Shown here: one piece after another, positions 536-6,045 of the stretch
How the letters are laid out: each line of letters opens with the position of its first letter
Numbering within the stretch: position 1 is the first letter of the stretch
Source: Eledone cirrhosa
Taxonomy: Eukaryota
Assembly: GCA_964016885.1 (NCBI GenBank)
Contig: CAXHJY010001694.1
Coordinates: 1 to 14,449, forward strand
Direction: 5' to 3'
DNA length: 14,449 bases
The notes under the pieces: generated by a model
The model's database searches: none
Told to the model about the DNA's origin: nothing
Seen by the model: the letters and a program-made list of their open reading frames with translations, nothing else
Made by a program: the position numbers and the translations under genes

Positions 536-968
536 ATTCTTTTCCATTTATCGTTTTCGGTACGACCGTGGACTAACTCACTCGATATGCAAATTAGGCT
601 AGCCAGCCTTAATATACATAAGGAAAGTATATACTTTCAGACGTTCAACCATGTGACAGAAAGGTATACGATGCTGACGATAGCTAATAAGCTTGAAACT
701 AGTACATCGTTCCTGTGTCCCTGTTGAACAAAAAGATGATGTTTGCCTGAACACTGTACGGCGTAATTCGGGCTCTTTGTTTGTTTACAAACAAACCGAG
801 CTTTATAATAGATGCTCGGTAAACCCATACGTACATATATATATGTGTGCGTTATGTATATATATACATACTACTGTACGTATGTACACATATATGTATG
901 TACATACTTACATTTAAGTACCAGCCGTACTAAGAGTGAGAAATGAAATTCCGTTTCATTCTTTTCCA

Positions 969-970
<2 letters not shown>
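536..970 (+). mobile_element. Module A: non-coding hammerhead-bearing element (retrozyme / Penelope-like pLTR-derived), bounded by a 13-bp direct repeat
   Basis: ATTCTTTTCCATT at 536-548 and 958-970; HHR at 668-710 within an extended stem (TTCAAC 644-649 / GTTGAA 723-728); several side hairpins; flanked by the CA tract and (TA)n. Confidence 0.6.
668..710 (+). ncRNA. Type I hammerhead ribozyme, minimal (palindromic stem III)
   Basis: Stem I ACGATG(668-673)/CATCGT(705-710); core CTGACGA 674-680; stem II AGCT-AATA-AGCT (682-693) with a U.U closing pair; GAAA 695-698; stem III A-CTAG-T (palindrome ACTAGT); predicted cleavage after GUA (A704). Confidence 0.85.

Positions 971-971
<1 letters not shown>

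Positions 972-1046
<75 letters not shown>
972..1046. repeat. (TA)n microsatellite
   Basis: Perfect TA dinucleotide run. Confidence 0.98.
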
Positions 1047-1047
<1 letters not shown>

Positions 1048-1261
1048 CAGAGATGTCAACATGAATGGTTATTTTTATCTAGAGACATGTTTTCCAATTC
1101 CAACCCGACCGTCCCCTCAATCTATTTTATTTCTCTTTTTTTCTGATAAAAGACTTGCGTCCGAAACGTTAAGAATCTCTTTCTGCTATATCAGGCGTTA
1201 ACCTAATATATACCTTCCACATACTGTACCGATTGTGTTATTTCTGTTTTCCTTTTACATA

Positions 1262-1263
<2 letters not shown>
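1047..1263 (+). mobile_element. Module H1: dispersed repeat with minimal HHR (Penelope-like pLTR-type fragment)
   Basis: 1084-1233 aligns by eye to the reverse complement of 3556-3708; contains CTGATAA...CCGAAACGTTAAGA; flanked by (TA)n on both sides. Confidence 0.75.
1139..1174 (+). ncRNA. Minimal type I hammerhead ribozyme, core variant (G8->A), probably inactive
   Basis: TTTT CTGATAA(1143-1149) A AGAC-TTGC-GTCC GAAA(1163-1166) CGTT AAGA; stem III is the loopless palindrome ACGT. Confidence 0.65.

Positions 1264-1295
<32 letters not shown>
1264..1295. repeat. (TA)n microsatellite
   Basis: Perfect TA run. Confidence 0.98.
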
Positions 1296-1301
<6 letters not shown>

Positions 1302-1327
1302 TGTAATAAACAACATAAGATCATTAT

Positions 1328-1385
1328 TTCTTTTACCAGTGGTTTCTTGAAGACAGATGTGTTTGTCTTCAGTCGTCAGAATGAA
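1328..1385 (-). ncRNA. Type I hammerhead ribozyme (left arm of module B)
   Basis: Minus strand reads TTCATT CTGACGA(1379-1373) C TGAAGACA-AACACATC-TGTCTTCA A GAAA(1346-1343) CCACTGG TA AAAGAA; 8-bp stem II, stem III ACC-ACT-GGT, predicted GUA cleavage, stem I with one mismatch. Confidence 0.75.
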
Positions 1386-1435
1386 TAAATAACATGGTGT
1401 ATTTATTAAATATGGTAAAAACCCCATGCTATTTA

Positions 1436-1496
1436 TTCACTGTGACGACTGAAGACAGACATAACAGCTGCATTCAAGAAACCACTGGTAAATGAA
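1436..1496 (+). ncRNA. Hammerhead ribozyme, degenerate mirror copy (C3->G) in right arm of module B
   Basis: TTCACT GTGACGA(1442-1448) C TGAAGACAG-ACATAACAG-CTGCATTCA A GAAA(1478-1481) CCACTGG TA AATGAA. Confidence 0.6.
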
Positions 1497-1590
1497 ATAA
1501 TTATATTATGTTGTTTATTAAATAACTAATAAACTCTGTAGCCTACATAGAGCACTCTTTTTTCCTGTACCTTTCCGACGGAAATACTAC

Positions 1591-1593
<3 letters not shown>

Positions 1594-1636
<43 letters not shown>
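1594..1636. repeat. (TA)n microsatellite
   Basis: Perfect TA run. Confidence 0.98.
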
Positions 1637-1639
<3 letters not shown>

Positions 1640-1958
1640 TGTAATATAGTGTATTTGGTAATATACTGTATGCTTAATTAAAATCAGTTCCTGATTATTA
1701 CTGGAATTCTATAAGAATCGAACATGTATAATGTTCAACAAACAAAGGGAGTGCTAAGCTCTGAGGAATACCAACAGTATGAAACAGATCTGTCAGCTTA
1801 TCTGCCTTTGTTTGTTGAAAAAATAAGTAAGTGACATCGTCACTACTTTAAAACAATAGCATATGGTCTTCAATATGCTTTTAATTAAGCATACAGTGTA
1901 TTACCAAATGCACTATATATACATTCATATATACATCGCTATTTCAGAGCACCAATTC

Positions 1959-1964
<6 letters not shown>
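1637..1964 (+). mobile_element. Module C: branched rod-like non-coding element with central HHR, 47-bp terminal stem and short 3' tail
   Basis: Outer arms 1637-1683 / 1879-1926; inner stem TTCAACAAACAAAGG / CCTTTGTTTGTTGAA; side hairpins GAACAT/ATGTTC, AGTGAC/GTCACT, AGCATAT/ATATGCT; tail with AGAGCAC 1946-1952; (TA)n both sides. Confidence 0.8.
1755..1800 (+). ncRNA. Type I hammerhead ribozyme, intact consensus
   Basis: Stem I TAAGCT(1755-1760)/AGCTTA(1795-1800); core CTGAGGA 1761-1767; stem II ATAC-CAACA-GTAT; GAAA 1781-1784; stem III palindrome ACAGATCTGT; canonical GUC cleavage predicted after C1794. Confidence 0.92.

Positions 1965-2010
<46 letters not shown>
1965..2010. repeat. (TA)n microsatellite
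   Basis: Perfect TA run. Confidence 0.98.
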
Positions 2011-2015
<5 letters not shown>

Positions 2016-2154
2016 CGTAAAAATAAGAAAATCATAAAAATTAACTTACTTGAAATTTTAGTAAGTTAATTTTTATATTTCGCTTATTTTGCGTCTTTCA
2101 TATAATTGTTCTGCATCCCCTTGCATTGAACCACAACGTTACTAAGACAAAACC
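2011..2154 (+). mobile_element. Module D: short fold-back (2011-2098) plus 3' tail, no HHR core
   Basis: Perfect 17-bp inner arms ATAAAAATTAACTTACT (2034-2050)/AGTAAGTTAATTTTTAT (2060-2076); outer arms AAAGACGTAAAAATAAG / CTTATTTTGCGTCTTT; same hairpin+tail+TA layout as modules B and C. Confidence 0.55.
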
Positions 2155-2244
2155 TATATATTTGCTTGCATAGGTATACTTCTGTATATATATGTTGGTA
2201 GATATACTAATTCTTTATATATATATGTATATTTATTTACTTAT

Positions 2245-2519
2245 CAACAACAACCATTTGTTAGTCATACCCCATGTTAAATATAAGGCGCAGATGTATT
2301 CACATGCAACAATATATTTCTTATAAACACATGTAAGATGTTGTTCCTGGTGTTAATGTGTAACTCGTTAAAGAGCATATCATCATGTGTTGATTATATA
2401 TCTTCAGTTGAGTTAAACAATGACTCATGGAGGTGGATATTACATATTTATAAGAGCGTTGACGCTAGTTCGTAGCCTTACTTAACCCTAACTGTATCAA
2501 ATGTGTATAGAGCTGTTGT
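2245..2519 (-). mobile_element. Module E: decayed long fold-back with a central broken HHR-like core
   Basis: Nested inverted matches CATTTG/CAAATG, GTTAA..TAAGG/CCTTA.TTAAC, TCTTATAAA(2319-2327)/TTTATAAGA(2447-2455), TAACTC(2361-2366)/GAGTTA(2410-2415); minus-strand CTGAAGA (2407-2401) followed by a hairpin, but GAAA is missing. Confidence 0.4.
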
Positions 2520-2542
2520 CTTTCTCTATAACAGGGGTGTGG

Positions 2543-3103
2543 AACATATTCCATTGGCGGGCCACTTTTGAACATTGGAACAAATTTTAGAGCCATTAAT
2601 ATTTATTAAGCACTATTCCAAAGATTCACCACAACTTCTTACCGTAACCTGGAGCTGGGAAATTATAACACATATAACCTTATCAGTGGTTGCGGACTGG
2701 CCAGGTTGCCCAATCGCTAGTGCGCCCCTGGGGGCCAACGGTAGCATTGCAGGGGCCTGCAGTAGCATTGCAGTGCCAGATGTAGTATTTTAGGGGCTAA
2801 TGCTTAGCTTTAAACATATTCCATTGGCGGGCCACTTTTGAACATTGGAACAAATTTTAGAGCCATTAATATTTATTAAGCACTATTCCAAAGATTCACC
2901 CCAACTTCTTACCGTAACCTGGAGCTGGGAAATTATAACACATATAACCTTAACAGTGGTGGCGGACTAGCCAGGTTGCCCAATCGCTAGTGGACCCCCA
3001 GAGCCCCACGGTGGCATTGCAGGGGCCTGCAGTGGCATTGCAGGGGCCTGCAGTAGCATTGCAGTGTCCAATGTAGTATTTTAGGGACCAATGCTTAGCT
3101 TTA
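2543..3103. repeat. Tandem duplication of a 270-bp unit inside the hAT left end, with an internal 21-bp minisatellite
   Basis: CCATTGGCGGGCCAC at 2551 and 2821 (offset 270); the second copy has one extra GTGGCATTGCAGGGGCCTGCA unit (offset becomes 291). Confidence 0.92.
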
Positions 3104-3547: not shown

Positions 3548-3759
3548 AAAAAGGTATCGGTACAGTATATGGAAGGGATATATTATGTTAACGCTTTATA
3601 TGACAGAAAGAGCGTCTTAACGTTTCGGGCGCTAGTCCTTCACCAGAAGAAAGAATCAGAAATAAGATAGATTGAGGGGACGGGTGGGGTGGAATTGGAA
3701 AAAATGTCATATATATTGAGTGAGTGTAAAAGACCAAATGTCATCATTGAAAGTTTCTG
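3548..3759 (-). mobile_element. Module H2: second copy of the H1 HHR family, nested in the hAT element
   Basis: Reverse complement of 3556-3708 matches 1084-1233; weaker similarity out to ~3759; the 3' end abuts the (CA)n/(CACGCA)n tract on its own strand. Confidence 0.75.
3615..3650 (-). ncRNA. Minimal type I hammerhead ribozyme, core variant (A6->G)
   Basis: Minus strand TCTT CTGGTGA(3646-3640) A GGAC-TAGC-GCCC GAAAC GTT AAGA; stem I TCTT/AAGA perfect. Confidence 0.7.
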
Positions 3760-4314
3760 GATTTCGCAAAATACCTTCTCCAATAAAAAATATTATGTAA
3801 GATATTTTTCTGCAAAAACTTGATTGCACTGTTTTGTTACCACTTATAGAATGCTATCATTTAAATTTTATAATGAATAAATAACATTTTAAAAAATACA
3901 TATGTAGATGGGCCGCCTTCATCTCCTGGCAACCAATATCTTTAGACCCAGCCCGCCACTGCCTTTTAGTGAAACCCTTTAGCATAGTTCAACTAAACGA
4001 AAAGTGTATCACGGTTACGAAAAAAATTCTAAATAAGCTTACAAGGTATGAAGTAAAAATGGTCATTGCAGTTACTCTGACGGGCCTGGTTGGCCGTATC
4101 GTGGCCCGCAGGCTTCCTGTTGCACACCCCTGCTCTATAACCTATGCCCCTGGCTAAGAGTAAGGAAAGAAACGATCAGCATACCAGAACTCATTTGCTT
4201 ACTGATTTGGGTAGAACTCGTGAAATCAGAACAAAGAAACAATGTTTGCAGTGGTCTTTCAATTGTTGATAGTATCTACCTGTTGCAATATCTGGCAGAT
4301 AGCACCAAGTAAGC

Positions 4315-4405
4315 AAAATTGTTATGCTCAAGAACACAACACATCTTCCGGGTCGGAAATCGAACTCGCTATCTTACGATTGTGAATGCAATTCTCTAAC
4401 CACTA
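4315..4405 (-). mobile_element. tRNA-derived SINE (family 2), degenerate 5' part
   Basis: Minus strand has B-box-like GAGTTCGATTTCC followed by TGTGTTCTTGAGCA; homologous to 4740-4845. Confidence 0.65.
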
Positions 4406-4509
4406 ATACACAGTTATAAAGAATAAAGAGCTGAAACATATTTAAACAAATGAATCTTCTGTAGAAATGCCACAAGCCTGAATGTATTGGTAATTATAAA
4501 TTTACGTGA

Positions 4510-4720
4510 GGGCGGTGGATTGCCAGTATCGTTAGACAGTTGCACTCTGTGCTTTGCAGCATAGAGTTACGCCTCTTTATGGTCCGAGTTCAAATCCCAC
4601 CGAGGTTAACTTTGCCTTTTATTCTTACGGGGTCGATAAAATAAAGCGCCATAATGTACTGGGGTCGATTTAATCGACTCACCCCTAAAAAAATTACTGG
4701 CCTTGTGCCTATACTAGAAA
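4510..4720 (+). mobile_element. tRNA-derived SINE (family 1), near full length
   Basis: GGCGGTGGATTG head, B-box GAGTTCAAATCCC (4586-4598), body GAGGTTAACTTTGCCTTT..TCTTACGGGGTCGATAAAATAAA, tail GGCCTTGTGCC; several copies in the window. Confidence 0.85.
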
Positions 4721-4739
4721 TCGATACTATAAACTTACG

Positions 4740-4845
4740 TGAAATAAAATGTCTTGCTGAAGGACACAGCGCATCACCCGGTCCCTGAATCGAACTCGCA
4801 ACCTCACGATTGCGAATCCAATTCTCTATCCACCAAGCCACGCCT
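4740..4845 (-). mobile_element. tRNA-derived SINE (family 2), 5' part
   Basis: Minus strand A-box TGGCTTGGTGG, B-box GAGTTCGATTC, then TGTGTCCTTCAGCAAGACATTTTATTTCA (CORE/V-like central motif). Confidence 0.75.
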
Positions 4846-4955
4846 ATAAAGCGCTCACACGTACAGGGAACATATTTAGACATCTAAATATATCTGTAAA
4901 ACTACCACAAGCATGAATGCATTCGTGATGATAAACAAAGTTAATTATATATGTA

Positions 4956-5140
4956 GGGCGGTGGATTGGCAGTATCGGTATAGGGTCGGACGCCATGCTT
5001 TGATGCATAGTTATGGTCCTTGCCATCCCTTGTTCAAATCCCGCCGAGGTTAACTTTGCCTTTCATCCTTACGGTGTCGATAAAATAAAATACCAGTAAT
5101 ACACTGGTGATTGCTTGCCTTGTGCCAAAATTAGGAACAA
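4956..5140 (+). mobile_element. tRNA-derived SINE (family 1)
   Basis: Homologous to 4510-4720: GTTCAAATCCCGCCGAGGTTAACTTTGCCTTTCATCCTTACGGTGTCGATAAAATAAAATACCAG...GCCTTGTGCC. Confidence 0.85.
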
Positions 5141-5721
5141 TTATTTATTCAAAGTAATCCAACTTATTTTACTAACGGGATAAAAAAAACAAAAAAACCG
5201 TACACCGTCCCGTACTCCTTCCTTTATTATAGTTTAGATTTTTAAAATATGGCTTTTATATCATCATCATTTCTAGTGGTTATTGATATGTTCTTAAATT
5301 TATCTCTGAATTATCTACGAAATCTTAATACACTTTTTCTGATAACTTCACCAGGATAGTTACTACTTCATCATTATTTAGTGTCTATATATACAGAATC
5401 TAAATATATTCTCTTTATGTAGTCTTACAAACATATATTTATCGATAACGGAATCTTGCCTTTAATCTCATTCGTAAACCTAACACATAATATATATTTT
5501 CAAATCCGAAAATCATGCATATGTAAAGTAGATTCTTTAAGTATTAAACATATATAAATACATCTTTGAATAGAGATTGTAAGCGTCTTAAGTCTATATA
5601 TAATAAATAAGCCTGTTCTATTTTAACAAACATAATACTGTTATACGTATATTTATCTAAAGAGGGATATTGTGGTCGATATTTTGTGTGTGTGTTTATA
5701 TATGTATGGGTGTAGGCATAT

Positions 5722-5768
5722 GGGTTCAAGTCTCGCCGAGGGTAGCTTTGCATTTTATCCTTACTGTA
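5722..5768 (+). mobile_element. SINE family 1 fragment (B-box and start of body)
   Basis: GGTTCAAGTCTCGCCGAGGGTAGCTTTGCATTTTATCCTTAC resembles the B-box/body of the other copies. Confidence 0.55.
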
Positions 5769-5870
5769 GACCTGACAACCTTTAAAAACCCAACAGGTGA
5801 GTACAACGAAGAGAGTGCAACAACACTTAGAAAAATCAGGCAAAATAAAGGGATTTTAATACCTGTTTCT

Positions 5871-6045
5871 CCTTTTGGCACAAGGCCAGCAATTACTCAC
5901 TGCATTACTGGTACTTTATTTTATCGACCCCATAAGGATGAAAGGGAAAGTTAACCTCGGCGGGATTCGAATTCAGAATGGCAAGGGCCGTAACTCTATA
6001 CGTCATAGCATAGCGTCCGACCCTCTACCGATACTGCCAATCCAC
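5871..6045 (-). mobile_element. tRNA-derived SINE (family 1), reverse orientation
   Basis: Reverse complement GTGGATTGGCAGTATCGGTAGAGGGTCGGACGCTATGC...TTCGAATCCCGCCGAGGTTAACTTTCCCTTTCATCCTTATGGGGTCGATAAAATAAAGTACCAG...GGCCTTGTGCC. Confidence 0.85.

Follow-up and report, generated by a model that had tools for sequence, protein, structure and literature searches.

Tails of Penelope-Like Elements and Retrozyme-Type Hammerhead Repeats Probably Piled between TA Microsatellites in Eledone cirrhosa

Organization of the Locus

The window analysed here is the entire 14,449-nt (14.4-kb) contig CAXHJY010001694.1 of the Eledone cirrhosa assembly GCA_964016885.1, a genome of 3.0 Gb in 1796 contigs. Near its start lies a nest of short elements separated by (TA)n tracts, whose families carry hammerhead ribozyme motifs. 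An earlier note, made from the sequence alone, had described four of these elements (M1 to M4) as unrelated non-coding repeats mobilised in trans by a Penelope-like element (PLE). All four modules, and the (TA)n spacers between them, are located where it placed them, and similarity among the four families is limited to simple repeats. Behind them lies a fifth element, X5 (Table 1). By contrast with the earlier description, M2 and M3 are joined elsewhere in the genome to open reading frames (ORFs) for reverse transcriptase (RT) and a GIY-YIG endonuclease (EN), as 3' pseudo-long terminal repeats (pseudo-LTRs, pLTRs), whereas M1, M4, and X5 behave as ORF-less tandem monomers. The five elements of 536-2217 all have the same orientation (+), which random orientation would produce with a chance of 1 in 16; at other loci (L014 and L021), neighbouring elements are also seen tail to tail.

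Table 1. Elements, spacers, and hammerhead motifs of the window
Feature	Position	Strand	Description
M1	536..971	+	Retrozyme-type non-coding unit, slightly >1 monomer; family monomer ~440-445 nt
M1 type I hammerhead, intact	668..710	+	Core 674-680, U·U at stem II base, GAAA 695-698, predicted cut after 704
(TA)n tract, M1 3' end	972..1046		
M2	1049..1262	+	5'-truncated 3' pseudo-LTR of a coding PLE, Neptune-type by motifs
M2 hammerhead, mutated in window copy	1143-1170	+	G8->A, CUGAUAA at 1143
(TA)n tract, M2 3' end	1264..1297		
M3	1298..1593	+	3' pseudo-LTR of a coding PLE, Hydra-clade by motifs, with 5' fold-back inversion; forward arm ~1416-1593
M3 inverted arm	1328..1385	-	Intact hammerhead core 1379-1373, one stem I mismatch
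(TA)n tract, M3 3' end	1594..1636		
M4 5' inverted piece	1637..1689	-	Copy of M4's own 3' part
M4	1679..1964	+	Retrozyme-type non-coding unit with intact hammerhead; family monomer ~320 nt
M4 hammerhead, intact	within 1679..1964	+	Core 1761-1767, GAAA 1781-1784, predicted cut after 1794
(TA)n tract, M4 3' end	1965..2010		
X5	2011..2217	+	3' part of a fifth tandem hammerhead family, unit ~530-535 nt; short 5' inversion 2011-2051
Second M2-family copy (Neptune-type pLTR)	3556..3706	-	Core mutated, 3646-3640

M1 is bounded by a 13-nt terminal direct repeat (536-548 and 958-970). The segment 2225-2520 has no match in any fetched genomic locus, and no PLE ORF is found in the window.

Hammerheads were sought with a strict type I descriptor and with a relaxed one, in which a bulge or mismatch is tolerated at the base of stem II. 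The strict descriptor detects only the M4 motif of the window (core at 1761; 0 in 200 shuffles), whereas the relaxed one detects three, at 674 (+), 1761 (+), and 1379 (-); the M1 and M3 motifs escape the strict search because their stem II base is mismatched. On the + strand of the window only the M1 and M4 cores are intact; the M2 core is mutated and that of M3 is intact only on the inverted arm. The true core position of the M3 forward arm, 1442, carries C3->G, and a CUGAAGA just downstream of it was rejected as the core: it sits in stem II. The M4 hammerhead has a long stem I extension (fold z -5.2). The window copy of X5 starts just past the predicted cut site and, being cut off there, has no hammerhead. 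When the 29 best copies of each module in the genome are aligned, the majority-letter core is canonical for every one of the four families, and most M1-M4 copies carry a canonical type I hammerhead. The claim of a short stem III, palindromic or nearly so, is confirmed, although the perfect palindrome of M4 is a deletion variant, since most M4 copies hold 2 extra nt there. None of the 58 Rfam matches to 530-2560 at E<=10 is a hammerhead, and the Rfam matches on the whole window (best 150 of 346) are mostly miRNA models over simple repeats.

Coding Elements behind M2 and M3

Longer genomic copies of M2 extend 5' across an untranslated region (UTR) and reach an ORF that encodes RT, a CX4CxxC linker, and a GIY-YIG domain with CCHH. 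Pfam finds RVT_1 (E 5.5e-4) and GIY-YIG (E 0.0017-0.012) in this ORF, both below the curated cut-offs. A genome search with the EN piece of this element yields 27,785 first-look candidates, probably including related families. Thirty EN loci were fetched, the query's own locus among them, and in 25 of these M2 is located downstream of the EN ORF; the arrangement pLTR-ORF-pLTR is present in 3 of 10 long stretches, with a pLTR spacing of 3.45 kb at locus L211. No intact ORF of the M2 element is found among the listed frames of 150 scored EN matches, the longest having 688 aa with one stop. As judged from its sequence, M2 is the 5'-truncated 3' pseudo-LTR of a coding Neptune-type PLE. The clade call is motif-based, and the motifs fit Neptune, or Nematis; linker motifs in common are described for these two clades (Craig et al. 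2021, PMC8557442). At L085 and L211, a (TA)n tract separates the upstream pLTR from the shared 5' UTR, an order which suggests that the full-length transcript includes the microsatellite.

Copies of M3 retrieved with a query restricted to its tail differ in the position of the palindrome centre, and many of them extend 5' without inversion. Walking upstream from M3 leads to an ORF located 1.5-1.9 kb before the hammerhead. One locus (L368) has an M3 copy ~120 nt ahead of the ORF start, and two others (L366 and L367) have M3 downstream of the same ORF. The ORF, as assembled from pieces of L368, contains RWK, DKT, a CxCX5C linker, CxxC, CxH, and GIY-YIG, without CCHH; this set, including the missing CCHH, is described for Hydra PLEs (Craig et al. 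2021, PMC8557442). Pfam returns no relevant family for the Hydra ORF pieces, and a protein search with the Hydra EN gives 4 unnamed matches. M3 is thus the 3' pseudo-LTR of a coding PLE, which its motifs place in the Hydra clade. A stop-free Hydra-like ORF of 668 aa at L373:7708-9711 is the longest open PLE frame among the fetched loci.

Non-Coding Families M1, M4, and X5

Loci of M1, M4, and X5 were fetched with short internal queries, 29 for each family (87 in total). Their copies are circularly permuted, ORF-less, head-to-tail monomers of the lengths given in Table 1. More than one unit is present in 44 of the 87 copies, and a 5' inverted piece in 53. Copies reaching 5' beyond one unit enter their own 3' end, not an ORF. 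Two complete units, by which Li et al. recognize 'active' retrozymes, are present in 4 of the 87, those reaching about two or more units by length; the window copies are single units. Moreover, a contiguous upstream ORF is absent from all 87 loci. A panel of eight PLE protein pieces matches 0 M4, 4 M1, and 2 X5 loci, in no case as a contiguous upstream ORF, and the candidates for a coding partner are nested insertions and simple-repeat matches only.

The natural monomers fold well as circles, with z -9.1 for M4, -3.1 for X5, and -5.0 for a 310-nt family (30 doublet shuffles). This 310-nt family is a sister of M4, with ~80% identity in the M4 3'-end region and a different hammerhead; the family matches Rfam Hammerhead_HH9 weakly (E 0.0035, 23 bits; gathering score 52). 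It forms an array at L386:112-3603 (G000:C3 near 190.0 Mb) of 11.3 units with 99% identity and 11 hammerheads, which is probably young. Additionally, M1 has a distant sister in a family of 467 nt. The 5' ends fall within 21 nt of the predicted cut site in 18 of the 87 copies (~9 expected) and within 6 nt in 5, the queries lying just downstream of the site. By their organization, M1, M4, and X5 are judged to be non-LTR retrozymes.

Microsatellite Targeting and Conservation of the Ribozyme

The preference for (TA)n suspected in the earlier note is borne out by the 3' ends: 113 of 141 copies have (TA)3 no more than 20 nt away, compared with 9.3% of random positions (M4 20/29, M1 23/29, X5 29/29, M3 24/29, and M2 17/25, the last leaving out 4 loci without a match). 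Any dinucleotide repeat is present at the 3' end in 128 of 141, versus a background of 11%. M1, M4, and X5 have two main 3' ends each, mostly bordering TA-like stretches of the element; the exact 3' ends of M2 and X5 are blurred because their references ended in TA.

The ribozyme core is better conserved than its surroundings. Within families, substitutions amount to 18/1276 at the 11 core positions (1.4%) against 1451/34181 elsewhere (4.2%), a test independent of the descriptor's demand for stem I pairing. Furthermore, covariation was assessed in 13 compact-hammerhead families of 42 clusters, picked for alignable size: 92.3% of cells are paired, 7 of 8 pairs have double changes, and 0 of 500 shuffles score as high. 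Stem I covaries fully across these families, and C3-G8 is replaced by U3-A8 in 2 of them; the covariation test has some circularity, as the descriptor required stem I to pair.

Abundance and Diversity in the Genome

All four modules are high-copy interspersed families, as was anticipated, with about 3000 first-look candidates each (M1 3222, M2 2940, M3 3001, and M4 3816; 40 scored per module) and best copies of 84-94% identity. Density was sampled in 80 evenly spaced 10-kb stretches (799,400 bases), which contain 13 insertions of M1, 6 of M2, 8 of M3, 5 of M4, and 5 of X5, scaling to roughly 19,000-49,000 copies per family. The same sample has 81 intact hammerheads in 31 stretches, whereas the reversed sequence yields 0 and the five shuffles yield 0-2. 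They form 24 sequence clusters, some families being split between clusters and 11 motifs coming from one array. The segment from GAAA to UH, whose symmetry the descriptor did not demand, is perfectly palindromic in 46 of the 81. Extrapolation gives ~300,000 intact hammerheads genome-wide (bootstrap 190,000-440,000), or ~100 per Mb, an estimate that may be biased, since the four largest contigs (54% of the genome) supplied 58 of the 80 stretches. Schistosoma may approach this density. Families with a U3-A8 core variant (L007:1249-1292, L262:2550-2603, and others) account for 10 of the 81 motifs, and one of them is a sister of M4.

Hydra-like ORFs are present in 17 of the 80 stretches (3.3% of bases) and Neptune-like ORFs in 12, while (TA)6+ makes up 4.4% of the sampled bases. 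Because hammerheads are so abundant in this sample, the nest amounts to common elements that have piled up locally. The undescribed radiation suspected in the earlier note is thus upheld as regards its genome-wide extent and high copy number, but the system is of a known kind.

Interpretation and Alternative Explanations

The nest is best explained as five independent insertions piled between TA microsatellites: two truncated tails of coding PLEs (M2 Neptune-type, M3 Hydra) and three non-coding hammerhead repeats (M1, M4, and X5) likely copied in trans by PLE enzymes. We give this explanation a probability of roughly 0.85. The proposed link to Penelope holds, as RT and GIY-YIG ORFs are joined to M2 and M3; among the fetched loci, pLTRs matching the modules were found around such ORFs for these two and for neither M1 nor M4. 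Trans mobilisation of non-coding units therefore remains a fitting description for M1, M4, and X5 only.

In the proposed mechanism, the PLE endonuclease would nick a (TA)n tract and target-primed reverse transcription would follow. RT would begin within the element RNA, ~90-270 nt downstream of the predicted cut site, at one or two fixed positions beside short TA-like stretches able to pair with the nicked target; such pairing is suggested because most start sites border TA-like RNA stretches. Copying would proceed toward the 5' end, with frequent stopping or fold-back giving truncated and inverted pieces. For M1, M4, and X5, the template used in trans would be a circle made by the hammerhead through cleavage and ligation, or an uncleaved multimer; a circular or multimeric template is likely, since many copies read through the cut site. 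Self-cleavage of the M1, M4, and X5 RNAs and the presence of circular RNA are predicted. Each insertion would leave flanking TA tracts as targets for the next one.

Several points weigh against this explanation. At one top-hit M1 locus (L059), the 5' end of the copy meets a broken Hydra EN, a junction that probably reflects nested insertion, and the 121 EN C-termini and 25 ORF starts of the fetched loci include no coding parent or partner for M1, M4, and X5. Only 4 of 87 copies are at about two units. The anole element PAc inserts in vitro without needing hammerhead cleavage (Frangieh et al. 2024, PMC11167929), and its start site is not homologous to the target (PMC11167929); precedent therefore demands neither circles nor target pairing. 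Additionally, 8 of 9 Xenopus retrozyme dimers were uncleaved in vitro (Li, Clavereau & Pollet 2026, 10.64898/2026.07.22.740005), and the clade calls for M2 and M3 depend on motifs.

The alternative that survives best, though with a small chance, is that M1, M4, and X5, too, belong as pLTRs to coding PLEs, the bodies of which are rare, their tandems being due to partial-tandem insertion or later unequal crossover with no circular RNA. Retrozymes have been proposed to arise from PLE pLTRs and may expand locally (Li et al. 2026, 10.64898/2026.07.22.740005), and both the scarcity of two-unit copies and the small share of the genome represented by the fetched loci (<0.1%) are in its favour. However, 5' extensions run into the element's own 3' end and none of the 87 loci is ORF-linked, whereas the links of M2 and M3 appeared at once. 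That every module is a non-autonomous, non-coding retrozyme mobilised in trans, as the earlier note held, is very improbable: the lack of a PLE ORF in the window and the behaviour of M1, M4, and X5 agree with it, but it is refuted for M2 and M3, whose upstream continuations are RT/GIY-YIG ORFs that they flank as pLTRs. Least credible are DNA transposons resembling miniature inverted-repeat transposable elements (MITEs) that insert at TA and bear hammerheads incidentally; M3, M4, and X5 do look like inverted-repeat elements in the window, but a MITE or terminal inverted repeat (TIR) transposon with fixed repeats at both ends is rejected for them because 5' ends and inversion points vary, the inverted pieces differing in length and centre and the 3' end alone being fixed, and the near absence of hammerheads from reversed and shuffled sequence is equally against chance motifs.

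A wider scenario is possible but doubtful. In it, this genome would hold one of the densest hammerhead radiations known (~300,000 motifs in dozens of families), raised by a massive expansion of Hydra and Neptune PLEs; its circular-RNA retrozymes would be primed by UA pairing to nicked (TA)n, unlike PAc, and the cycle would feed the TA microsatellites (4.4% of sampled bases).

Other Features of the Window

Beyond the nest, 2543-3066 is a 270-nt tandem repeat of 1.9 copies with 21-nt GC-rich subrepeats inside. Very high-copy repeats resembling short interspersed nuclear elements (SINEs), with >70 matches in the 80-stretch sample, occupy ~4500-5150 and 5820-6050; we assume a resemblance to octopod SINEs for ~4540-5140 and 5860-6050. 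An element of ~400 nt with inverted ends lies between TA tracts at 6260-6660; it is nearly absent from the fetched loci and is possibly a TIR element. A degraded piece of an abundant Hydra-like PLE family is present at ~6700-6790 (-), and other members of the family are found at L141:1370-1900, L129, L044, and L356. The 3' pLTR of this family at these loci has no CUGANGA core and no Rfam match, and may hold another RNA motif or none. The second half of the window, 7240-14449, is a 7.2-kb strand-asymmetric TA/CA satellite reaching the contig end.

Significance and Comparison with Known Systems

In this genome, one simple repeat is the target of coding PLEs of the Hydra and Neptune types, of retrozymes lacking an ORF, of a young array of 11 units, and of sister families that have a common priming region and different hammerheads. 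This combination makes the choice between circular and multimeric templates and the role of target pairing directly testable, and the young array of L386 is suited to cleavage tests. The microsatellite bias of PLEs and their tandem or inverted insertion are described as open mechanistic questions (Craig et al. 2021, PMC8557442), and retrozyme origins have been examined mostly in vertebrates (Li et al. 2026, 10.64898/2026.07.22.740005). In this genome, short hammerhead repeats form a large repeat class.

PLE hammerheads and retrozymes as such are already published (PMC4209133, PMC7229834; review PMC6765202). Our literature search found no report of cephalopod retrozymes or of such density, although Repbase/Dfam or the supplements of Li et al. 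may list these families, and the only relevant source it gave for cephalopods was Craig et al. 2021 (PMC8557442), whose supplement lists Hydra-1_Obim from Octopus bimaculoides with a (TA)n preference. In the searched passages of a 2026 repeat annotation of Octopus vulgaris (PMC13282606), ribozymes and retrozymes are never mentioned. For comparison, coelacanth and Xenopus have published counts of 4,000-9,000 min-hammerheads, mussel has ~5,000, and axolotl has 126,247. By estimate, the present number is higher than these counts and far higher per Mb, ~100 compared with ~4.5 per Mb in axolotl (126,247 motifs, 28 Gb), with the reservation that the descriptors differ. The nest is a mixture of coding-PLE tails and retrozymes of known kinds; what stands out is the scale and diversity of the radiation.

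The M1, M4, and X5 families resemble the animal non-LTR retrozymes (Cervera & de la Peña 2020, PMC7229834; Li et al. 2026) in being ORF-less head-to-tail monomers with a type I hammerhead, in their GC content of 33-36%, in their self-pairing as circles, and in the co-occurrence of PLEs. The U·U at the base of helix II of the M1 hammerhead is likewise described for axolotl HHR_Amex2. Unlike the long arrays of retrozymes, these families are mostly dispersed copies of 0.4-2 units with 5' inversions at (TA)n; moreover, their monomers reach ~530-535 nt, and no sequence link to a coding PLE was found in the fetched loci.

The M3 element shares with Hydra-clade PLEs (PMC8557442) a C-terminal GIY-YIG without CCHH, RWK, DKT, CxCX5C, a canonical hammerhead, and TA targeting, the last being a bias known for Hydra, Neptune, and Naiad PLEs (PMC8557442). 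However, published descriptions make Hydra PLEs short elements (<3 kb) that have few families in hosts other than cnidarians, whereas the M3 element has a low-complexity 3' UTR of 1.5-1.9 kb and Hydra-like ORFs are present in 17 of the 80 sampled stretches. The M2 element agrees with Neptune-type PLEs (Cervera & de la Peña 2014, PMC4209133; PMC8557442) in its pLTR-ORF-pLTR structure, CX2-5CxxC linker, CCHH, and microsatellite bias, and its hammerhead agrees with their min-hammerheads in the minimal palindromic stem III and the extra nucleotide before stem II; the element differs in that no intact ORF was found among the frames listed for the 150 scored EN matches. As with Poseidon PAc of Anolis (PMC11167929), for which internal initiation was demonstrated in vitro, RT appears to start internally at two nearby sites downstream of the hammerhead and the targets are AT-rich. 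The start site of PAc is not homologous to its target, whereas most start sites of the Eledone elements border TA-like RNA stretches, which suggests pairing with the target.

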